Part shown: in pieces, positions 28,327 through 39,754 of the stretch
Position numbering within the stretch: the stretch's first letter is position 1
Layout of the letters: the number at the start of each line of letters is the position of its first letter
DNA from: Gemmatimonadota bacterium
GTDB lineage: Bacteria > Gemmatimonadota > Gemmatimonadetes > Gemmatimonadales > GWC2-71-9
Reading direction: 5' to 3'
NCBI GenBank assembly: GCA_039586365.1
Contig: JBDHKN010000007.1
Location: forward strand, 30,358-94,357
DNA: 64,000 nt
Made by a program: the position numbers and the translations under genes
Notes under the pieces: model-generated
What the model was told of the DNA's origin: nothing
The model's input: only the letters and a program-made list of their open reading frames with translations
Database searches by the model: none

Positions 28327-28602
28327 CTAGCCAGCACTCCGGAAATACATCAGCCCGAAGAGCACGAAGGCCAACAATCCGAGGCCTACAGCAAGCACGA
28401 CCACTGCGGCCCTCTGTCTGAGTTGACCTGCGCCCGCCCTCATCCCCACGATCCGGATGGCCTGCTGAACATCCTTGGCGTCAATCCTCGGGTGACGGTC
28501 CTGGAACTCTTCGATCAGGCACTCGAGTTCTCTCGCCAGTTCCTGCGCCTCCAATGTCGCCTGAGGTGGAGGCACATAGGTAGTGGGAGGAATGAACGTC
28601 AT
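28327..28602 (-). CDS. Small hypothetical protein with a single C-terminal TM helix
   Basis: Helical acidic N-terminal part (ELARELECLIEEFQDRHP) and a hydrophobic C-terminal segment; GGAG upstream of ATG 28602. Confidence 0.65.
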   Translation of the reverse strand: MTFIPPTTYVPPPQATLEAQELARELECLIEEFQDRHPRIDAKDVQQAIRIVGMRAGAGQLRQRAAVVVLAVGLGLLAFVLFGLMYFRSAG

Positions 28603-28778
28603 CCTGCACTCCAATCTTGCTGATGGGGACGTTTCGGGAGCCCGACCGTACTGCTCCCACATCTATAGCCTAGAGCCCGACATACCCGCGCCAGAAACGG
28701 AGTTCCCTCACATGTCAGATCGAATCCCACTAGTCGTCAGCCGCGTCCATCCATAACGATCAGCGTATCTCTGCAACT

Positions 28779-31205
28779 CTAAGCTGATGTCAAGGCAGAA
28801 ACCGGATCGACGCGAGTGACACGTTTCGCCGGAATGAAGCTCGCCAGGATTCCCGCACTCGCCAGAGTGAACAGGACCGTCCCGAACACCGCCGGATCGC
28901 GCGCGTTGACCTCGAACAGAATTATCTGCAGTCGACCGGCTGCGAGCACTGCGAGTGCGAGGCCGAGTCCAAGCCCGATCGCAAGTTGGACCGCGCCCTT
29001 TCTCATCACCAAGCCGACTAGCTGGCGACCCTGTGCACCCAAGGCCATGCGGACCCCCATCTCATGCGTGCGCTGCGCTACTGCGAATGACATCACTCCG
29101 TATAAGCCCACGGCTGCGAGGAACAGGGCTGAGAACCCAAATGCCATGAACAGCTTGCCAAACACCGAGAAGAAGAACGTCTGGCGGTCGATCACCCCTT
29201 CCATGGACATCACTTGGAAGATCGGCAGGTTGGGATCGATTGACGCCACGGCAGCCCGTACCTCTGCAGTCTTGGACATCGGTGGGCCCTGTGTCCGCAG
29301 CGCCAGGCTGACGAAGTTACCGACACCGCTCTGTGCAATCGGAATGTAGAACCCTGCGGGGCTCGCATCGTTGTTGCCGATGCCCTCCATGCGCATGTCG
29401 GGTACTACACCAACAACCGTCAACCAATGAGCCGTGGTGTCGCGCTGGCCCATACGAATGCGCCTGCCCAAGGCGTTTTCGTTTGCGAAGAACGTCCGCA
29501 CGAACGTCTCGTTGACAACGCAAACCGGAAGGGCCCCCTGGCGGTCGGCAAGGCCGAAGGCTCTGCCCTGCAGAACTTCCGTTTGGAAGGTGCGGAAGTA
29601 TCCCGGCGTTACGATGCCTTCCCGCGCCGTTGGGAAGTCATCATCCTCTGCATAGTCCTGTCCTTCGACTTCAAACACCCTGGCTCCGTTGCCTGAAGCG
29701 GGAAGGCCGTCAGAGAGTGTTGCCGCCTCGACACCTGGTATTGCTTCGAGCCGCGGCAACAGCTCCGCATAGAACTGCAGACGGCTCACGGTGTCTGGGT
29801 ATTCGACTTGGGGCAGGTTGATCCGCGCCGTGAACACGTTGTCAGTGGTGAATGGGAGGTCTACCGTTTTGAGCTGGGTGACGCTCTTGATCATCAGACC
29901 GGCGGCGATCAAGAGACCGCAGGATAGGGCAACCTCCGCAACGACCAAGCCTCCAGTCACTCTGCTCATCCGAAAACTCGATGAGCCACGATTCTCGTCC
30001 TTCAGCGCTTCGCCGACCTTGTTTCTGGTCGCCTGCAGCGCAGGAACAACACCTGAGGCCACCGCAGCTATGAGCGTCGCAGCGATTACGAACAACATCA
30101 CCCGGTGATCGAGATCGAACCGAATCCAGAATGGAGGCGGATTCACCTGTATCACCATCTTGAACCACTCGATCCCAAGTATGCCCAGACCGAGTCCCAG
30201 CACACCCCCGGCAAACGCCAGCACCAGGACTTCGGTCAGCAGCTGACTGATGACACGGATGCGGGCTGCGCCCAGCGCCGTTCTGACCGCAACTTCTCTT
30301 GTCCTGACGGATGTCCGGGCAATCAGAAGATTGGCAACATTTACACAAGCGATGAGCATCACACCCAACACCGCCCCCAGCATCGTGTACAGCAGGGCGT
30401 ACACCTGCGTGCCTATGAGCTCAGTGAACGGTCTGACGTCGGCACCAATACCATCGTTGCTCTCCGGATAGGCCTGCTCGAGTCGAGCCGCGATGGCAGC
30501 AATTTGGCTTCTGGCTTCCGCTACTGAAACGCCCTCTTTCAGGCGACCCACGAGGGGATACGCCGGACCTTCTCCTCTCGCATGCGCCGTGGGATCCAGC
30601 TCCAACGGCAGCCATACCTGCTCGTTGCCCGGAAACTCGAACCCCTCGGGCATGACACCGACGATGGTACGCGTTTCACCGTTGGCACGGAGGGTCCGGT
30701 TGAGGATATCGGGCGCACCTCCGAAGCGTTGTTGCCACAGTTCGTAGCCGATGATAATCACCGGCTCGGCTCCCGAGCGGGCTTCCTCCTCCCTAAACGT
30801 GCGACCTATTACAGGTTGCACCTTCAGTATCTCAAACATGTTGGGGGTGAATGTGCCACCCGTGAACCGTTCCGGCTGCCCCTCGGACCACGACAGATTC
30901 ACGGGACTGGTACGCCAGGCAGCTAGGTCCTCGAACGTCGTCTGCTGCTCCCTCCAATCGCCGTAGTCGTGGGTGCTCACACCCATGAACTCGATGTCGC
31001 GCGATGGATTGGTGCGACCCAACGACATGATCAGGTGGGAGTCCTCAAATGGGAGTCCCTTGTAGATCACTCCGTTCACTATGCTGAAGACCGTTGTCGT
31101 GAGTCCGACACCGAGGCCGAACGTGAGGACTACTATCGCCGTGAGACCAGGAGATTTCAGAGCCATCCTGAGACCAAAACGCAGGTCCTTAAGCAGCGCT
31201 CCCAT
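28779..31205 (-). CDS. Duplicated MacB/FtsX ABC permease (ADOP-type)
   Basis: 808 aa; DLRFGLR start, IACVNVANLLIAR...REVAVRTALGA, second repeat QRTHEMGVRMALGA, end PAKRVTRVDP..AL. Confidence 0.95.
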   Translation of the reverse strand: MGALLKDLRFGLRMALKSPGLTAIVVLTFGLGVGLTTTVFSIVNGVIYKGLPFEDSHLIMSLGRTNPSRDIEFMGVSTHDYGDWREQQTTFEDLAAWRTSPVNLSWSEGQPERFTGGTFTPNMFEILKVQPVIGRTFREEEARSGAEPVIIIGYELWQQRFGGAPDILNRTLRANGETRTIVGVMPEGFEFPGNEQVWLPLELDPTAHARGEGPAYPLVGRLKEGVSVAEARSQIAAIAARLEQAYPESNDGIGADVRPFTELIGTQVYALLYTMLGAVLGVMLIACVNVANLLIARTSVRTREVAVRTALGAARIRVISQLLTEVLVLAFAGGVLGLGLGILGIEWFKMVIQVNPPPFWIRFDLDHRVMLFVIAATLIAAVASGVVPALQATRNKVGEALKDENRGSSSFRMSRVTGGLVVAEVALSCGLLIAAGLMIKSVTQLKTVDLPFTTDNVFTARINLPQVEYPDTVSRLQFYAELLPRLEAIPGVEAATLSDGLPASGNGARVFEVEGQDYAEDDDFPTAREGIVTPGYFRTFQTEVLQGRAFGLADRQGALPVCVVNETFVRTFFANENALGRRIRMGQRDTTAHWLTVVGVVPDMRMEGIGNNDASPAGFYIPIAQSGVGNFVSLALRTQGPPMSKTAEVRAAVASIDPNLPIFQVMSMEGVIDRQTFFFSVFGKLFMAFGFSALFLAAVGLYGVMSFAVAQRTHEMGVRMALGAQGRQLVGLVMRKGAVQLAIGLGLGLALAVLAAGRLQIILFEVNARDPAVFGTVLFTLASAGILASFIPAKRVTRVDPVSALTSA

Positions 31206-31283
31206 TGGTCAACTCCAGGTTCGGGGAGAGGGAAGCCGCCACTTGGTATCTAGCTATAGAAGATAGTCAGTGGCATTGGACTC

Positions 31284-31310
31284 TACGGATGAAACGAACG
31301 TGTGGTTTCA
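31284..31310 (-). promoter_or_regulatory. Putative ECF-sigma promoter upstream of the stand-alone ADOP permease
   Basis: Minus strand TCC-TGAAAC-N17-CGTA, about 80 nt upstream of ATG 31205. Confidence 0.55.
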
Positions 31311-31416
31311 GGAGGCAACCATCCATGGCTCTGGTGCGGATCGTTCCTGATTGGAACGAGACCTATTCCTTGCCCGTGGGTCAAGCTCTGGACTCTTAGG
31401 GTGTCGGCGCAGTGAC

Positions 31417-32157
31417 CTAGGGATGCTCGGGTTGGGCTTTTGGACGGAGCTGCACGATCGGCCCCAGAGCTAGCTCCACGGCATTTACAATTCGTGCTTT
31501 GTCTACAAACAGGCTGCTGTCGGGTACGGATGCGTAGTCCCCAACCATTCTGTCCCACCTCTCGATCAATTCCAAGCCACCGCGTCCTATGTACAACCCG
31601 ACTCCGTCCATATCCTCGATAACTACAGACAACGACAAGGCATAGAAGACGCCCCAACCCCTGACTCCCACGGACTGTGACACTCCATCCCACCTAGCTT
31701 GAGAGTAGTCTGACTCTGCTTCCACCACCTGTATCTCCGGGTAGAGCAATGCGTCGGGGTCAAACTTCTCCCGCAGCTCCTCCTTGAGTTGTCCGACGGC
31801 AGTCCTGAAACGCTCTTCGTCAAACGCGCCAGTGTAGGGGTTGTAGAGGCCGCCGATCTCCTCCACAACGCGCGCCCATATCTCTGCGTGGACCACTGAG
31901 GGAAGCGTCTCGAAGCCGGCGTCGTGGACCTTAGCTGCGATGAGTGAGTCCAGCTCCAGAAGCACTGCTTCGGGCACCTCAGCACCCTCTCCCAGGACAA
32001 CCGGAGTAAGTGCAATACGATCAATCTCGGCGTACACTTGTTCGCGAGGAGCCACGAACCTATGTGTCGTCGGCACAGGACGACAGCCGGAACACAAGCC
32101 AGCTATCAGGCTGGTGATCAGCAACAGACGCAAGCGCTCCAATAGCAGTACTGCCAT
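31417..32157 (-). CDS. Hypothetical lipoprotein (alpha/beta fold)
   Basis: 246 aa ORF with a hydrophobic signal ending CSGC; no family recognised. Confidence 0.7.
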   Translation of the reverse strand: MAVLLLERLRLLLITSLIAGLCSGCRPVPTTHRFVAPREQVYAEIDRIALTPVVLGEGAEVPEAVLLELDSLIAAKVHDAGFETLPSVVHAEIWARVVEEIGGLYNPYTGAFDEERFRTAVGQLKEELREKFDPDALLYPEIQVVEAESDYSQARWDGVSQSVGVRGWGVFYALSLSVVIEDMDGVGLYIGRGGLELIERWDRMVGDYASVPDSSLFVDKARIVNAVELALGPIVQLRPKAQPEHP

Positions 32158-32405: not shown

Positions 32406-32948
32406 ATGCCAAGGAAGAAACGTATCCCAAAACGTGACAAGCGAGGCAATCCCTACTTGGATGTGACCCAAGGGGAAGATCATAGTGGGGTGCGTGTCAC
32501 TTTCGAGCGCGCGTGGTATTCCCCACCCCTAGACGACAACCTCGAAATCGACTTTGAGAAAGCTGCCGAAGAACTGCAAGCAGAAGTCACGGCTGGGACG
32601 CTGTGGTTTCAGAACTACCTCGACAACGACGATCTGACGCACCCAGTTGTGTTCACCTTGGAGTCGCGTAATGGCTTGGAGGCCTTGATAAGCACCATAC
32701 GTCAGGTATTCAAGGATGGCTTGCGTGAGAGCAACGCCGTGCGGGAGGCAGGTCTTGCCAAGTGCCAAGCGGCACTCGTTGATCGTCGCAAGGGAGCGCG
32801 CCGGCGAGGACGTGATCGCCGAGTAAATGGTGATCGCCGCAACGCAAGCCAACGCGTATTCGACAAGCTGCGGATCCGCAATCTCCGCAAGAAGCAAAGA
32901 AGGCAGATCGCCGACCGCCGCAGGGGAACCGAGCGTCGGGCTGCCTGA
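32406..32948 (+). CDS. Hypothetical protein with a C-terminal [D/E/Q]RR arginine-repeat tail
   Basis: 180 aa with its own strong promoter; tail DRRKGARR..DRRVNGDRR..QRRQIADRRRGTERR. Confidence 0.7.
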   Translation: MPRKKRIPKRDKRGNPYLDVTQGEDHSGVRVTFERAWYSPPLDDNLEIDFEKAAEELQAEVTAGTLWFQNYLDNDDLTHPVVFTLESRNGLEALISTIRQVFKDGLRESNAVREAGLAKCQAALVDRRKGARRRGRDRRVNGDRRNASQRVFDKLRIRNLRKKQRRQIADRRRGTERRAA

Positions 32949-33032: not shown

Positions 33033-36000
33033 CTACTCATACCGCAGCACCGAAGCGGCATCCACTCGACTAGCACGCATTGCCGGGACGACGCTGGCCA
33101 GGGTGGCTACCGATACAAAGATCACCACAACACCCAAGAACGTGATCGGATCGAATGGCCCAATCCCAAACAGCACAGAAGCCATCGCGCGACTCGCCAC
33201 GAGCGCCAGTAACAGACCCAGACCCAACCCTACTCCGCTGAGCTTCAGGCCTTCGCTCAAAAAGAGCCGACGAATGGTTGTCCCGCTAGCTCCTAACGCC
33301 ATGCGCACTCCGATTTCTCTGTGCCGTTGTGCAACAGAGTAGGCCACCACACCGTAGAGTCCCAAGACCGCAAGTAACAAGGAGGCACCCCCCAACAAAG
33401 CCAACAACACCGAGCTGATGCTCCACGGCAGGGTCTGCTCGCTCACGACACTGTTCATGGTCCGAATCGTGACAGGCAGATCACCGTCGACGCTGCGCAG
33501 TACACTCCGTACGGAGCTCACGGCTGTACCGGGAGCACCATGAGCCGCGATGACTAAGAACCGGCGTCTAACGGCCTGCTGCGCCACCGGCACATAGAGC
33601 TGGGGACGCTGATCGGCTGAGATACCCTCAAACCTAACGTCGCCCACCACGCCTACTATCGTAGCGGCTGTCTGTTGGTCGGACTCGGCAAGCACGATCG
33701 TTCGGCCAATTGGATCATCTCCGAGCCACGGTTCTCTTGCCAATCGCTCACCGACAATCACGACCTGCGGCGCATCGGTGTTGTCGGCCGCAGTGAAGTC
33801 CCTTCCTGCAAGGAGCGGGACCTCCATTACTTCGAAGTACCCTGGAGAGACAATATGGAACAGGCCCACGGACCAGTCTTCCCGCTCGGCCGGCACCTGA
33901 GCCGGATCGGAATAGCCCGTCAGGGAGTTCTCGTTATTGAGCGGCAGCCGGTCAACTGTCGACACCGACCTAATCCCGGAAAGTGCCTCGAGCTCTGCCG
34001 TCGCTCTTCCGTAGAACGCCTGCACATCGGTTGCTTCCGGATAGCTCAGTTGCGGTGGCGTGACGGTTACCGTCAAGACGGAATCCGGTTCGAAGCCCAA
34101 GTCGAGATGTTGCATTGCCAACAGGCTACGTGCAGCGAGGCCCATTCCACTGATCAGGACCGCCGCAACAGCGATCTGGAAGACGACCAGGGCGCGCCGC
34201 GTCCGCATCGATCGCATTCCGGATCCTGCGCCGCGTCCTTCCTTGAGCGCGGCACTCAGGTCCGTCCGCGTGACGGAGAGCGCCGGTGCCAGTCCGAACA
34301 TGAGAGCCGTGAGAACCGTTACACCCATCGCAAACATCAATACTGTCCCGTCGACGGACGCCTCACCGACCCGATACCAATCCTCCGGGATCAGTGGACC
34401 GACGGTCTTCGAGCCCCACTGCGTCACCGCCAATCCCAGGATTCCACCAACCGCAGCCAACATTACGCTCTCAGTCAACAGCTGCCTTATCAGCCGCCCC
34501 CGCCCCGCACCGAGAGCCGTGCGCACTGCCACTTCACCCTTCCGTGCCGTCCCGCGCGCCAAGATTAGGCTCGCGACGTTGGCGCACACGATTATCAGCG
34601 CGAAAGCTACCGAGACCATGAGCAGTGTGAACATTATGCGGAAGATGTCCCACACGAAGTTCAGTGCCTGCCGAATCGGCAGTACGCTGATCCCGGAATA
34701 TCTGCCATCTTCCTCAGGGTAAGCCTCAGCTAGGTTCCTCTGGATCGCGTTCAACTCCTCCCGCGCAACTTCCGGACTCCAGCCATCCTTCAACCGCCCC
34801 ACGATGATGCTGCCCATGCGCCCGCGGAGATCCTGCTCGGAGTTCATCCTGATCGGAAGCCATAGATCGATGCCACCGAACGGGAACACGAAGTCGCGCG
34901 GCATCACGCCCACTACTGTACGGGAAACACCGTCGATCGTGATCGACCGGCCCACGATCTCCGGATCTCCTCCGTAACGTCTCTGCCACAAGCCGTGATC
35001 CAGCACCGTCACTTCGCCCGCTGTGGGCTCGCTCTCTTCAGGCAGGAGGGCGCGGCCGAGCAAAGGGGTCACCTGCAGCAGCGAAAACATGTTGCCGGTA
35101 ACGTAGCCGACCAAGATGCGCTCGGGCCCTGCTACACCGGTCAGGTTCCGCGACCCGTAGTAGTACGCGCCCAAATCGCTGAACGCACTAGTTCGCTCCC
35201 TGTAATCTGCCAGTTGCGGGAGAGAGAACCTCATACGACCCCATCCGAGCGCATCGTCCACCTGGCCCAGTTGCACCAGTCTGTCCGATTCTCCGAACGG
35301 TAGGGGCCGGATGAAGTAGGGGTTCATGAGGCTGAACACCAGCGCAGTGGCGGCAATTCCGAATGCGAGAGTGAGCACCACCACGGTGGTGAACAGGGGA
35401 GTCCGCGACAGGTTACGAAGTGCGTAGATACAGTCTTGCTTGATGGAACCGAGCATCTGTCGTCCTCTGGTCAGTAGGGGATAACCGGCACGTGTCCGTG
35501 GAGCTTTGGCCGTGTCTCCCAACAAGCGTCTAGTGAGAGCCGATAGACGGGGACCGAGCAGCGATAATTTCTCACGGATGGGTGATACGTGCCCGACTCC
35601 CCGTTCCAGCGACGCAACCAACTCGGTAGGTGAGGCGTGGCGCCGCTCCAATTCCAACGACATCCCACGCTTCACCGCTCTTTCAACTCTGCTGGGTATT
35701 CCGGGCACGAAGGCCCCTAGATCGGGTGCCTCTGAGGTGAACCGCTGTGACACGATGGCCAGCGTCGTCGTTCCAACGAATGGCGGACGCCCGGAGAGCA
35801 TCTCGAACACCATACACGCGAGGCTGTATACATCCGAGCGCGCACCCAGGTGATGCTCGCCGCTCGCCTGCTCCGGACTCACGTATGCCGGAGTGCCGGC
35901 GGACGAGTCCACAGCTGGAGGTTTCCCCCATTCAAACGCCTCGGCGTGAATCGCTCGTGCGATCCCGAAGTCAGCCACGAAAGCGTGATTGCCGGACAGC

Positions 36001-36644
36001 AACACATTGGCCGGTTTGACATCACAATGCACTACTCTGCGCTCGTGCGCATACTCCAGAGCGGCGGCGACGCCACGGGTGATGCTCATGGTCTCGTCTA
36101 CCGAGAGCCTCTGCTTGCGGTCCAGAAGATCCCGCAATGACCCGTCGCGGATGTACGGCATTACATAGTAGGGATAGCCGGCTGCCTCCCCCGCATCGTG
36201 AAGTGGCAGGATGTGATGGTGCTCCAGGCGGGCAGTATTGCGAATCTCTTTGAGGAACTGTTGGATACCTATCCCGCTGACGGCCTCTGGAGAGACTACC
36301 TTGATCGCCACCTGTCGACCGAGCTTGACGTCACGCGCTAGGTAGACTGTTCCCATTCCACCGTGCCCCAACTCACGATCGATCAGGTAACGGTCCGACA
36401 TTGCGGCGTGGAAGTTCTGGTCCGACCACCCGCCTGACTCCGCTTCGAACAGATCGTCGAAGTCGACCCGGAACACCTCAAGCATCCGTTCGCGCGTCTT
36501 GGGGGATGGATAAGGATGCTTACCGTTGACTATATCGGACCAGTGACCACGCGACAGTCCGAGCTTCATGGCCCAGTGGTTCTGGGAGAGATTACTCCGG
36601 GCTATGAGGTCGAGCAGTTGTTCTCGCTTCAGTCGAACACGCAT
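33033..36644 (-). CDS. Fusion protein: XRE-family HTH + Hanks-type Ser/Thr kinase + duplicated MacB/FtsX (ADOP) permease
   Basis: One uninterrupted frame. HTH LSQNHWAMKLGLSRGHWSDIVNGKHPYPS (about 36644-36445). Kinase LGHGGMGTVY, VAIK, HCDVKPAN, DFG, GTPAYVSPEQ, DVYSL (about 36400-35610). Permease from M at 35456 (QDCIYALR, CANVA, GVRMALGA, PAMRASRVD..LRYE). Confidence 0.9.
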   Translation of the reverse strand: MRVRLKREQLLDLIARSNLSQNHWAMKLGLSRGHWSDIVNGKHPYPSPKTRERMLEVFRVDFDDLFEAESGGWSDQNFHAAMSDRYLIDRELGHGGMGTVYLARDVKLGRQVAIKVVSPEAVSGIGIQQFLKEIRNTARLEHHHILPLHDAGEAAGYPYYVMPYIRDGSLRDLLDRKQRLSVDETMSITRGVAAALEYAHERRVVHCDVKPANVLLSGNHAFVADFGIARAIHAEAFEWGKPPAVDSSAGTPAYVSPEQASGEHHLGARSDVYSLACMVFEMLSGRPPFVGTTTLAIVSQRFTSEAPDLGAFVPGIPSRVERAVKRGMSLELERRHASPTELVASLERGVGHVSPIREKLSLLGPRLSALTRRLLGDTAKAPRTRAGYPLLTRGRQMLGSIKQDCIYALRNLSRTPLFTTVVVLTLAFGIAATALVFSLMNPYFIRPLPFGESDRLVQLGQVDDALGWGRMRFSLPQLADYRERTSAFSDLGAYYYGSRNLTGVAGPERILVGYVTGNMFSLLQVTPLLGRALLPEESEPTAGEVTVLDHGLWQRRYGGDPEIVGRSITIDGVSRTVVGVMPRDFVFPFGGIDLWLPIRMNSEQDLRGRMGSIIVGRLKDGWSPEVAREELNAIQRNLAEAYPEEDGRYSGISVLPIRQALNFVWDIFRIMFTLLMVSVAFALIIVCANVASLILARGTARKGEVAVRTALGAGRGRLIRQLLTESVMLAAVGGILGLAVTQWGSKTVGPLIPEDWYRVGEASVDGTVLMFAMGVTVLTALMFGLAPALSVTRTDLSAALKEGRGAGSGMRSMRTRRALVVFQIAVAAVLISGMGLAARSLLAMQHLDLGFEPDSVLTVTVTPPQLSYPEATDVQAFYGRATAELEALSGIRSVSTVDRLPLNNENSLTGYSDPAQVPAEREDWSVGLFHIVSPGYFEVMEVPLLAGRDFTAADNTDAPQVVIVGERLAREPWLGDDPIGRTIVLAESDQQTAATIVGVVGDVRFEGISADQRPQLYVPVAQQAVRRRFLVIAAHGAPGTAVSSVRSVLRSVDGDLPVTIRTMNSVVSEQTLPWSISSVLLALLGGASLLLAVLGLYGVVAYSVAQRHREIGVRMALGASGTTIRRLFLSEGLKLSGVGLGLGLLLALVASRAMASVLFGIGPFDPITFLGVVVIFVSVATLASVVPAMRASRVDAASVLRYE

Positions 36645-36746
36645 GTTTCCTAGCCCCATACCCAAGTCGAGTTGCCAGAAGGGCGGTACCGGCCAGTTGG
36701 CTGTAGGGCGCAAACGGACACAGCCGCACGGCCTCTGAAACTAAGA

Positions 36747-36772
36747 TACGGCTCGGAGCACGGAGCGTTTCA
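36747..36772 (-). promoter_or_regulatory. Putative ECF-sigma promoter upstream of the HTH-kinase-permease gene
   Basis: Minus strand TCC-TGAAAC-N16-CGTA. Confidence 0.55.
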
Positions 36773-36865
36773 GGATCGGCCGAAGAAGTGTTCGGTGAAG
36801 TTCGGAATGGGGCAAGATCGACCTATCAACCACAGTACGGCCCGAAGCCATGCGGCTAGCGCTCC

Positions 36866-39754
36866 TCAGCGGGTCCCCTCACGCGGTTCTCCCGTCAGTC
36901 GTGCTAGCGCGGTTCGTGCTTCCTCAACCAGTGGCTGAAGGTGAGGGTCGGCATAGCGCCAGGCATCCACAACGTAGGAGAAAGACCTCACTGCCTCCTC
37001 AGTGTTGCCAAGCCGCTCGTTGACCCGACCCCGCTCGAGCGCGACGATGACCGCTTCAGCGGGAGGCGCAAATTGCCGGGTGTATGGCATTTGACGCAAC
37101 AGCGATGCTGCCTCGCTGTCCCTACCGATGGCCGCCAGCACCTGCGCCCGGACGAGCCATGGGCCGTATTGCCAGTAGGAAAAAGGCCAGTTCGGGATCG
37201 CCTCGAGTTCATGCAGGGCTGTGACCGTATCACCCCGCACAAGTGCCAAATAGGCCGGCCCGGCCCGAACCAGCCAGTCCCACACGCCCGACCGCTCGGG
37301 CGGAGCCTGGGCCCGTTGCGAGTCCAGCGAGGCGACAGCCTGTTGGAGTGACAGGCTGTCGCGCTCCTGCAGCCACCAGCGAAGTCCTATGTATGTTCGG
37401 AAACCGTCACCGCTGCGGAGCCAACCGTCGTATAGCGTCGCCGCAGAATCGCGCGACAGCGCACCCAGCCGTGTCAGAGTACCGACGAGCGCAGGCCAAT
37501 CGTCGCCGGCTACCTCGTAGGCTGCGCCCAGTCGGCCACGATAGGCCAATGCCAGGGCGAGTGGCTGCCGCCCCATCATTGAGTCAGACAGGGCCCAAAC
37601 GCGGGCGACCTGCGTAGCCGTCTCCGCTGAGTCGACCCACCACTTGAGATCATACCACACCTGGTACATAGCATTGCCAGGCAGCGGCTCGAGCACCGCA
37701 GCTAGATCGGCACCCCGGGCCCGGTCGGGATCCAGTAAGCTGAGGGTGACTCGTTCCGCATCGGTAAGAGGGTTGGAGCCAGCCCGGGCCAGATATGCCT
37801 CAACAACGCGCGCGGCAGGCGTGGCTCCCTCAAGTACTAGCGTCAGTTCAATGACATGTTTGTAGGCGGGAACGAAAGCCGAGTCCAGTTCCACCGCCTT
37901 GGAGAAAGCCGCTAGCGCCTGCTCGTCCGTGACCCCCAGATAGGGACCGAAGTGATAGCGGGCCTCGCCGAGTTCATACCACACCTGCGGATCCAGAGGA
38001 TACTGCCTGACGGCGTATTCCAGCGTGGGTAGCAGTCGCTGTAGCCGCGGCCAGCTGCTCGAATCTCCCCTGAAATAGGCAAGCGCTCCCCAAATAGAAT
38101 CTGATACCAGCAAGAGGCTTTCACGCCGAGCCAACCCCTGATTCAACTCTCCGGCGCGCAGTAGGGAGGCGACGAATTCTGTGTCACCATACAGATCCCA
38201 CCCTAAGGTGGCTGCACGGCGGCTGTGGGCCAACGCGAAGGTACTGTCCAGCTCGATGGCCCGTTCGTAGTAAGCCTGTGCAGAGTCCAAGTCGAAACGG
38301 CGGTAGTGTTGTTCTCCCTGCAGGAAGGCCTTGAGCGCGGCCGGCGAGGACGAACCGAGCGAGGCGAGCCTCCAGGCTCCAAGCGGCCGGCTACGACTGA
38401 GGTCCCCCATCAGCCGGACCGCCAGGGAGTCAGTGAGCCGGTCGATCCGATCCGAGCGGTCTCGCACGTCAAACTCGGAAATGACCCGACGATTCGCGAC
38501 GTCGTACAGAGTTGCCAGCGCTCGGGCGGAGTCTTCCCCAGTTCCCACGAGACGGCCGTAGACAACCAAACCAGCCTGCAAGCTCGCCCCGAAATCTGCC
38601 GCCGAAGGTGGATCGGCTCGCCCACTCCAACTCTTGATGGCCACCGAGGGAGAGACTGTCCTGAGAGGACCCGCGCCGTCCAGGCTGGCCGAGAGCATAT
38701 CGACCACCCCCTCACTCCACGTTTCCAGCTCGGGACTCAACACGTCGAACGGTGCGACCGCAATGACGTTGGGATTGAGTTCCGGCCTGGGCCGCAACAG
38801 GAACACCCCTGCGACCACTACCGCGACGGCCAAGATCCCGGCAATCCAGAGGAGGGGCCGTATCTTCCGCCGTGAAACCTCCTCTGGGGCGTCCCGCTCC
38901 GGCACTGGGACGGGTGTGTCGCTCCGGGTCGTGAGAGCTGTTACCAGCTCAGCGGCGGTGGCGAACCTGTCAGATGGGCGTTGAGCGAGTGCTTTGACGA
39001 GAATTGTCTCCACCGGATCGGGGAGGCTGTCCAGCTGTCTACGCTCTTCGGGCGACGCGTCAGCAATGCGCCCGGTTGTCACGGACTTGTCGTCTAACCA
39101 TCGCTCGAGCGCTTTGCCGACAACCATCTCATACAGCACGCAGCCTAGACTGTAGATATCCGTCCTGCCGTCCAGATCGCGGCTCCCAGCAGCTTGTTCC
39201 GGACTCATGTAGCCCAAGGTCCCCAGCGGGAGACCCGAAGCTGTAAGGTTGGGTCCGCCCGCTGCGCTGACCGCCCGGGCGATCCCAAAATCAGAAACCA
39301 CTGCCACCCCACCCGAGAGGAGGATATTCTCGGGCTTGATATCGCGGTGGATCACACTGCGGCCGTGAGCGTAACTCAGGGCCGTGGCCACTTCCCGCGC
39401 GATGCGCAGTGCCTCGTCGAGGGAGAGCTGCCGCTCCCGGTTCAGCCGAGCTCGCAGCGACTCGCCCTCGACGTAGGGCATGGTGTAGTAGAGAACACCG
39501 TTGGCCAGACCGGAGTCGTGCACCGGGATTATGTGAGGGTGGCTGAGCTGGGCGGCAATCTGGATCTCCCGCACGAAGCGGTCGCCGCCCAAGAAACCTG
39601 ATAACTCGGGTCGCATGACCTTCACGGCGACCTGCCGGCCATGCTTCGAGTCCCTGGCCAGATAGACGGTGGCCATCCCACCGCTGCCAAGCACACGCTC
39701 GATGGCATAGCGACCCGCGAGGGCCTGCTGCACCTGGTCGAACACCTCGTTCAT
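36866..39754 (-). CDS. Membrane-anchored Ser/Thr protein kinase with a TolB-N-like and TPR/helical C-terminal region
   Basis: LGSGGMATVY, VAVK, HRDIKPEN, DFG, GTLGYMSPEQ; TM LLWIAGILAVAVVVAGVFLL; IAVAPF; TPR-like repeats AIELDSTFALA and AVELDSAFVPA. Confidence 0.92.
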   Translation of the reverse strand: MNEVFDQVQQALAGRYAIERVLGSGGMATVYLARDSKHGRQVAVKVMRPELSGFLGGDRFVREIQIAAQLSHPHIIPVHDSGLANGVLYYTMPYVEGESLRARLNRERQLSLDEALRIAREVATALSYAHGRSVIHRDIKPENILLSGGVAVVSDFGIARAVSAAGGPNLTASGLPLGTLGYMSPEQAAGSRDLDGRTDIYSLGCVLYEMVVGKALERWLDDKSVTTGRIADASPEERRQLDSLPDPVETILVKALAQRPSDRFATAAELVTALTTRSDTPVPVPERDAPEEVSRRKIRPLLWIAGILAVAVVVAGVFLLRPRPELNPNVIAVAPFDVLSPELETWSEGVVDMLSASLDGAGPLRTVSPSVAIKSWSGRADPPSAADFGASLQAGLVVYGRLVGTGEDSARALATLYDVANRRVISEFDVRDRSDRIDRLTDSLAVRLMGDLSRSRPLGAWRLASLGSSSPAALKAFLQGEQHYRRFDLDSAQAYYERAIELDSTFALAHSRRAATLGWDLYGDTEFVASLLRAGELNQGLARRESLLLVSDSIWGALAYFRGDSSSWPRLQRLLPTLEYAVRQYPLDPQVWYELGEARYHFGPYLGVTDEQALAAFSKAVELDSAFVPAYKHVIELTLVLEGATPAARVVEAYLARAGSNPLTDAERVTLSLLDPDRARGADLAAVLEPLPGNAMYQVWYDLKWWVDSAETATQVARVWALSDSMMGRQPLALALAYRGRLGAAYEVAGDDWPALVGTLTRLGALSRDSAATLYDGWLRSGDGFRTYIGLRWWLQERDSLSLQQAVASLDSQRAQAPPERSGVWDWLVRAGPAYLALVRGDTVTALHELEAIPNWPFSYWQYGPWLVRAQVLAAIGRDSEAASLLRQMPYTRQFAPPAEAVIVALERGRVNERLGNTEEAVRSFSYVVDAWRYADPHLQPLVEEARTALARLTGEPREGTR

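Follow-up and report, generated by a model that had tools for sequence, protein, structure and literature searches.

A Gemmatimonadota permease with a fused helix-turn-helix and Ser/Thr kinase head as a candidate membrane-tethered self-activator

In Bacillus subtilis the type VII ATP-binding cassette (ABC) transporter BceAB controls BceS (10.1101/2020.02.28.969956). HAAS domains fused to MacB/FtsX permeases have been described as well, and signalling from them to PadR regulators was proposed (10.1101/2020.09.24.301986). One acidobacterial genome carries 102 duplicated permeases of the ADOP family, 80 of which were transcribed (PMC10564751), and the supplement of a survey of transmembrane regulators contains 76 regulators with a MacB_PCD domain (PMC10269533). 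Here we describe a gene at positions 33033-36644 (minus strand) of a 64,000-nucleotide stretch of Gemmatimonadota DNA (contig JBDHKN010000007.1 of assembly GCA_039586365.1; hereafter the window). Its 1,203-residue product joins an XRE/Cro-type helix-turn-helix (HTH), a Hanks-type Ser/Thr kinase and an ADOP permease in one chain.

One reading frame from HTH to permease

The gene is a single stop-free frame starting at ATG 36644. The first-pass annotation of this stretch had described one continuous polypeptide of HTH, Hanks kinase and duplicated permease, which was borne out by translation, Pfam and TIGR03434; homologues and bridging contigs agree with it. All features of the gene lie on the minus strand. 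The HTH (residues 1-70, 36435-36644) was matched by HTH_31 at residues 15-64 with an E-value of 2.7e-5 and 24.8 bits, the Pfam cut-off being 27. Its matches in the PDB were weak and of XRE type (E-values of 0.003-0.009), and those in the Atlas, at 0.8, are leads only. Two relatives, P0143 and P0259, exceeded the HTH profile cut-off that the query HTH does not reach. The kinase (residues 83-346, 35607-36398) was recognized as Pkinase at residues 88-296 (E-value 1.3e-45). It is followed by a variable basic linker (residues 347-396, 35457-35606), which is the least conserved part of the alignment, with a mean identity to the query of 20% and a length that varies within the family. The permease (residues 397-1203, 33033-35456) matched the ADOP model TIGR03434 over residues 402-1203 with 854.6 bits against a curated cut-off of 622.3, covering model positions 2-803 of 803. 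Two matches each to MacB_PCD and FtsX were found in the frame, nine hydrophobic segments of the permease rise above 1.6, and its relatives in a sequence search of the PDB were MacB structures only (5lil, 5gko, 5nik, 5xu1).

Both joints between the domains, where the first-pass annotation had allowed for an assembly join, are intact. The HTH/kinase joint is bridged by Logan contigs X1 record 7 and X4 record 31, the kinase/linker/permease joint by X2 record 14, X3 record 21 and X4 records 30 and 31. These are contigs of four public runs rather than reads, and one run may be the source sample. They list no insertions or deletions within the reading frame, and the whole gene is spanned by no single piece. 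No RNA data set was listed for the stretch, which is uninformative as to expression.

The same annotation had left open whether full-length homologues exist elsewhere, and they do. Using residues 1-400 as query and covering lengths of 661-2,106 residues, 119 of the best 120 homologues listed carry MacB_PCD, and the named taxa among them are Gemmatimonadota. End to end, 111 proteins of 1,150-1,260 residues could be aligned. A second copy lies in the same genome (C64:26925-30608), with 63% identity in the HTH, 66% in the kinase and 33% in the permease, and another genome holds seven fusion copies. Among 301 genomes of the phylum at least six had an HTH match, a lower bound because at most 19 candidates were scored per genome; all eight matches fell in frames of 1,193-1,338 residues. 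The frame is broken in one of 20 loci (L004), inside the permease and not at a joint. The fusion is a real, conserved protein family. At L117:1499-2214 (genome G001), a copy of the upstream repeat described below is followed by roughly the first 22 codons of the HTH and then, in another frame, by the final third of an ADOP; this arrangement is either a deletion remnant or a misassembly.

A head carried by many permeases

The kinase contains the Gly-loop, VAIK (K115), HCDxKxxN, DFG and SPE motifs, with H-C-D instead of H-R-D in the catalytic loop. K115, H206, C207, N213, D225, F226 and G250-Q259 occur in 112 of 112 aligned rows and D208 in 111 of them, while the helix-C glutamate E133 is invariant in 45 rows. 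The features of a Hanks kinase are therefore all there (Gly-loop, beta-3 lysine, helix-C glutamate, catalytic aspartate and asparagine, DFG and an APE-like motif). A pseudokinase was ruled out, since the catalytic set is conserved across the 112 rows. Judged by its catalytic residues, the kinase is intact and non-RD. All but one of 125 family proteins have the HCD loop, whereas HRD is the rule among the motif matches of this genome (70 of 74). The protein falls outside the RD kinases of PknB/Stk1 type, which are marked by an arginine before the catalytic aspartate and by PASTA repeats (NF033483, 254.7 bits against a cut-off of 450). Non-RD kinases are not known to require phosphorylation of the activation loop. 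The only other HCD-loop kinase of the genome is a 397-residue frame at C130:21494-22684 that has neither HTH nor permease. Within the HTH, the Ser/Thr positions 17, 20, 31, 36 and 47 are kept in more than 90% of the 112 rows, as is T50. Some of these residues are also kept in proteins lacking the kinase, so that they may merely contact DNA.

We compared an HTH profile with 1.84 billion representatives and sorted the best 150 by custom domain profiles, one 70-residue call being doubtful. In this tally 77 were HTH-ADOP proteins without kinase, 33 had all three parts, nine had HTH and kinase, 30 had the HTH only (mostly short proteins) and one was unrelated. The head-only proteins are not distinguishable from fragments at contig ends, and several of them end inside the permease or in unrelated letters. 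Three of ten kinase-less clusters looked up were named Acidobacteriota; the other seven carried no name. The tally suggests that the HTH belongs to ADOP permeases and that the kinase was inserted in one branch. Judging from these domain arrangements, the HTH is a family of its own that occurs almost exclusively on permeases of the ADOP type. The switch made of HTH and permease would then be the older one, to which the kinase adds a further level of control.

Over 6,216 pairs of fusion proteins, median identity was 68% in the HTH, 61% in the kinase and 33% in the permease, and 33% is also the distance between fused permeases and stand-alone ADOPs. At a threshold of 45% identity the fused permeases fall into 22 clusters. 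When 57 of them were placed in a tree with 67 stand-alone permeases, they came out scattered. Among 16 fused and 16 stand-alone rows, chosen after that tree had been seen, well-supported branches force at least eight changes, and a single clade of fused permeases was rejected (approximately unbiased test, p-AU 5.5e-51). Set against 24 kinases of the genome, the kinases belonging to these 16 fusion proteins all fall on one side of a branch with a support of 99; this clade is partly built in because the proteins were found via the head, which does not affect the permease result. Permeases that are not one clade, together with kinases that are, indicate that the head was swapped onto many permeases. 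By both identity and tree comparison, HTH and kinase travel as one unit.

The first-pass annotation had likened the permease to a stand-alone 808-residue neighbour in the window (28779-31205, minus strand). Length and family do agree. A closer kinship did not emerge, as the two are 35.7% identical and other ADOPs are equally near, which also rules out a recent duplication of the neighbour. This neighbour has no N-terminal extension, no PadR gene and no upstream repeat, and is a naturally headless form.

At the start of the permease a Shine-Dalgarno-like purine run precedes an in-frame ATG (M397; 35454-35468, minus strand), a possible internal start. An ATG occupies this place in 18 of 21 fusion loci compared with 30% in control windows. 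Pairing of -4 kcal/mol or better, scored against the general bacterial anti-Shine-Dalgarno core because the 16S tail of the genome was not found, was seen in 13 of 21 loci compared with 21% in controls. At the protein level, methionine stands at the permease start in 84 of 125 three-part proteins (controls 24%) and in 57 of 72 kinase-less ones (controls 19%). ADOPs linked to PadR show the start signal more weakly (22 of 55, against 19%), and the paralogue has neither ATG nor GTG there. M397 may function as an internal start, or it may be left over from repeated capture.

What the head replaces can be read from the other ADOPs of this 5.4-Mb genome, which encodes 69 full ADOPs, 62 PadR domains and kinase matches in 88 frames, as against about nine MacB/LolD/FtsE-like ATPases. 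A PadR gene lies within 900 nt upstream of 55 of the 69 ADOPs, most of which have a helical N-terminal extension. Both fusion genes belong to the 14 without PadR. The earlier statement that ADOPs usually sit beside separate PadR regulators thus held in this genome. Seven PadR queries found no match in loci L001-L020, a weak test since the same queries found only three in 80 ordinary loci. By our own reading, the helical extensions would correspond to HAAS domains. From its position, the HTH-kinase head stands in place of a HAAS-like extension and its PadR.

The question of an ATPase bears on how the permease may work. MacB-type layout (PMC5985334) places the first coupling-helix motif at residues 701-726 (34467-34544, minus strand) and the second at residues 1107-1132 (33249-33326, minus strand). 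Fused ADOPs conserve both motifs as well as stand-alone ones do. By sequence, the protein has the MacB-type membrane domain and the coupling helices of a type VII ABC permease. As had been noted for the window, no ABC ATPase is encoded there, and no PF00005 match was found on the whole contig. Among the 13 related loci with at least 3.8 kb of downstream DNA, four have an ABC ATPase directly behind the gene and three of these an adaptor as well (both in the close kin L002, L004 and L006, the ATPase in L005). Apart from adaptor and ATPase in this one subgroup, no conserved gene neighbourhood was seen in the 54 of 132 flanking frames that were scanned. Seven of the genome's roughly nine MacB/LolD/FtsE-like ATPases were seen in operons of their own. 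A MacB-like ABC ATPase at C52:21941-22762 has no permease among the frames above 200 residues listed around it and could be a shared partner of ADOPs. The first-pass annotation had placed the head where MacB carries its nucleotide-binding domain. This comparison was not supported, since type VII permeases of the duplicated kind always have their ATPase on a chain of its own (PMC5985334), the coupling helices are kept and four of 13 loci have an ATPase. Coupling helices kept in the protein, together with adaptor and ATPase genes in some loci, argue that the kinase does not replace the ATPase, and we rejected that possibility.

The upstream repeat, a proposed mechanism and its rivals

Upstream of the gene lies a direct repeat, GAAC-N6-GAACAC, with a 10-bp period (36788-36805, minus strand) and a T-rich tract reaching to 36783; it is the candidate site of the HTH. 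As GAAC-N6-RAACAC with a T-tract, it recurs in 20 of 22 upstream regions at a distance of 84-185 nt from the start; it is missing from L001, and the region of L015 is truncated. When the 5.4-Mb genome was scored with a matrix derived from 18 foreign sites, the window site came first (35.4) and that of the paralogue second (22.0), while the third match (20.3) lay inside a gene on the other strand. In the five gene-bearing genomes, nine of 11 strict matches stand right before a fusion gene, covering nine of 14 copies. As a negative control we used 80 ordinary ADOP loci without HTH, taken from a metagenome scan aimed at kinase-less HTH-ADOP loci, and none of them scored above 18. Two intervals had earlier been proposed for electrophoretic mobility shift assays; 36645-36865 contains the conserved site, whereas 31206-31416 scores -16.5.

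Fifteen nucleotides behind the repeat, a putative promoter of extracytoplasmic function (ECF) type, TGAAAC-N16-CGTAT (36746-36772, minus strand), fits the sigma-W-type consensus (PMC5758882). With a score devised after the sequences had been seen, and with several close kin among the loci, such an element exceeded the threshold in 17 of 20 regions compared with 2.7% of shuffles. Its distance behind the repeat was 15 nt in nine of the 17 regions, 16 nt in one, 25 nt in six and 26 nt in one. Under the usual placing of the -35 box, the centre of the repeat would lie near -61 or -71. Class I activators act near -61.5 and -71.5 (PMC4132738). Two distance classes one helical turn apart would be a mark of class I activation.

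For a wider regulon of the repeat there are leads only, namely two unlinked sites in genome G303 (L141, L145) and one in G184 (L135). At L141:1500-1520 (minus strand), the repeat is worn and is followed after 16 nt by a promoter-like element; it precedes a 467-residue non-fusion frame, presumably a peptidase by its resemblance, and is a possible second target. The repeat at L135:1499-1523, which scores 27.9, is not accompanied by an HTH gene, and by eye its surroundings resemble an ECF sigma/anti-sigma/TonB-receptor cluster.

On this basis we propose that the protein is a membrane-tethered self-activator, in which the state of the permease sets the kinase and the head activates its own ECF-type promoter via the repeat; drawn from sequence, this reading has in our judgement an even chance of being right. 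The permease would cycle on a periplasmic substrate with an ATPase supplied in trans, and this cycle or a periplasmic ligand would gate the attached kinase. Two heads would then bind the tandem repeat and assist an ECF holoenzyme in transcribing the gene from its own promoter, which would raise the amount of permease, part of it headless from the internal start. We infer every arrow of this scheme, including HTH-repeat binding, activation, supply of the ATPase in trans, gating and output.

Several observations weigh against the self-activator. The HTH score stays under the Pfam cut-off. Nine of 13 loci have no nearby ATPase, and an orthologue of the operon ATPases was not seen in this 86%-complete genome (best identity 49%). 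One head is combined with permeases that are only 33% alike, which argues against a tight, co-evolved interface. In the phylum sample, 15 of 21 strict repeat matches are not followed by an HTH gene, the reversed control giving six matches. Among six regions chosen by gene position alone, the full 10-bp repeat was present in three, its first half was worn in one and the period was 12 bp in two; the second half was kept in all six, and a seventh region could not be scored. Besides the after-the-fact promoter score, three of 20 regions have no element over the threshold, and in two later loci the best element lies at 19 and 31 nt.

These points have to be weighed together with other explanations. 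The absence of an ATPase from the contig, and the 69 ADOPs set against about nine ATPases of which most have operons of their own, would be accounted for by the model of the first-pass annotation, an ATPase-free receptor in which a periplasmic ligand switches the kinase across the membrane with no transport cycle; permeases as diverse as these 22 clusters are also what is expected of ligand-binding receptors. We nevertheless consider such a receptor unlikely, since the coupling helices are conserved as in stand-alone ADOPs, an ATPase with or without adaptor follows the gene in some loci and the lone ATPase at C52 could be shared. If the permease merely anchored the HTH-kinase part and a cut in the linker freed it under stress, a linker of low conservation and variable length, and one head on unrelated permeases, would be readily understood. 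Release of this kind is distinctly unlikely, however, as the alignment contains no conserved cleavage motif, no protease is a conserved neighbour among the 54 frames scanned and a full permease with kept coupling helices exceeds the needs of an anchor.

We give a slim chance to the possibility that the repeat is a second ECF -35 element or another factor's site, and that the head represses or acts elsewhere. ECF -35 boxes consist of AAC followed by a T-tract, like the second half of the repeat (PMC5758882), and the 15 unlinked matches in the phylum fit as well. The distances of 15-16 and 25-26 nt to the sole conserved element behind it are, however, not one promoter spacing, and the repeat tracks the gene copy by copy within genomes and is missing from the 80 ordinary loci. 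That the kinase is a built-in brake, acting on the permease, the ATPase or other proteins with no signal passing from permease to HTH, is very improbable in view of five HTH Ser/Thr positions kept alongside a kinase that travels with the HTH, even though the HTH-ADOP sister proteins do without the kinase and it has no known substrate. An assembly join or a lost stop codon between separate genes, to which the Shine-Dalgarno-like run and ATG at the permease start might have pointed, is already refuted by the contigs bridging both joints, the 111 proteins aligned end to end and the paralogue whose 33%-identical permease is fused likewise.

Returning to the self-activator, a broader notion is that the dozens of orphan duplicated permeases of Gemmatimonadota and Acidobacteriota form a large receptor-transporter class with plug-in cytoplasmic outputs, of which the gene at 33033-36644 would be the most complete form. 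We regard this as possible though doubtful. The output would then be either HAAS together with a PadR acting in trans or a head in cis, made up of XRE alone or of XRE and kinase.

Around the gene, three small frames (31417-32157, minus strand; 32406-32948, plus strand; 28327-28662, minus strand) had no Pfam or NCBIfam match, and the first of them, of 246 residues, opens by eye with a lipoprotein-like hydrophobic stretch and cysteine. On the other side, a 962-residue Ser/Thr kinase with TolB_N-like and TPR regions (36866-39754, minus strand) ends 61 nt before the repeat; it was not seen at the equivalent place in the related loci.

Relation to known systems

In two phyla abundant in soil and sediment, ADOPs rank with the largest families that still lack an explanation, and this genome alone has 69. 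With the head fused and its site and promoter predicted, ADOP signalling could for the first time be assayed directly, by means of a soluble fragment of 350 residues, the 18-bp site and a reporter. If the self-activator is correct, a receptor Ser/Thr kinase gated by an ABC permease would activate an ECF promoter from the membrane, and one gene would yield both a sensor and, via the internal start, a headless permease induced by that sensor. This would be an undescribed way of turning envelope events into gene control. It would also unite a receptor role for a type VII ABC permease, transduction by a Hanks kinase and phased activation at an ECF promoter, three elements that did not occur together in the literature searched. 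No description of a three-part HTH-kinase-permease protein was found in that literature, which did not extend to most subscription papers or to bioRxiv supplements.

With the reservation that the HTH lies below its cut-off, a DNA-binding domain and membrane segments stand in one chain, as in transmembrane transcription regulators of ToxR/CadC type (PMC10269533). By definition, the predicted product of 33033-36644 is such a regulator. In the survey supplement, 19 MacB_PCD rows fall within the first 30 of 104 occurrences, and every one of them has an AraC-type HTH_18 domain on MacB/FtsX, whereas the head described here is of XRE type; neither MacB_PCD nor FtsX occurs in any of its 27 Pkinase rows, and permeases are not mentioned in the main-text passages searched (PMC10269533). 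Such permeases with DNA-binding heads have thus been recorded already, though without discussion in those passages, while XRE and XRE-kinase forms were not found there. In RefSeq genomes AraC-type HTH domains on duplicated MacB/FtsX permeases occur often several per genome, and these fusions provide an analogue in named, testable strains (PMC10269533).

MacB of MacAB-TolC (5lil, 5gko, 5nik, 5xu1) resembles the protein in its permease fold as judged by sequence, in the coupling helices and, in some operons, in the presence of adaptor and ATPase. MacB itself has a fused ATPase and forms a homodimer, whereas here both halves are one chain with an N-terminal regulatory head. The dyad of HAAS and PadR, like the other ADOPs with PadR, shares the permease family and a cytoplasmic N-terminal module tied to a transcription factor. 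It has been put forward, as a proposal only, as an alternative to two-component signalling (10.1101/2020.09.24.301986). The fusion gene differs in having no PadR and, without a HAAS profile scan, no apparent HAAS-like extension; instead, an XRE-type DNA-binding domain is present in cis, a Hanks kinase precedes the permease and the gene has an upstream site of its own.

The BceAB-BceRS flux-sensing system of B. subtilis also combines a fused two-half type VII ABC permease with a kinase that drives expression of the transporter (10.1101/2020.02.28.969956, PMC5985334). There the histidine kinase and the response regulator are separate proteins, while in the fusion protein a Ser/Thr kinase and an XRE HTH are carried on the permease chain. 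Moreover, BceB has one extracellular domain, whereas the fusion protein has two periplasmic domains (two MacB_PCD) and mostly no ATPase in its operon. It is therefore not a member of the BceAB-BceRS group, and the likeness is one of working only. By analogy, the proposed mechanism would be the logic of BceAB-BceRS in a single chain, with a Hanks kinase (10.1101/2020.02.28.969956).

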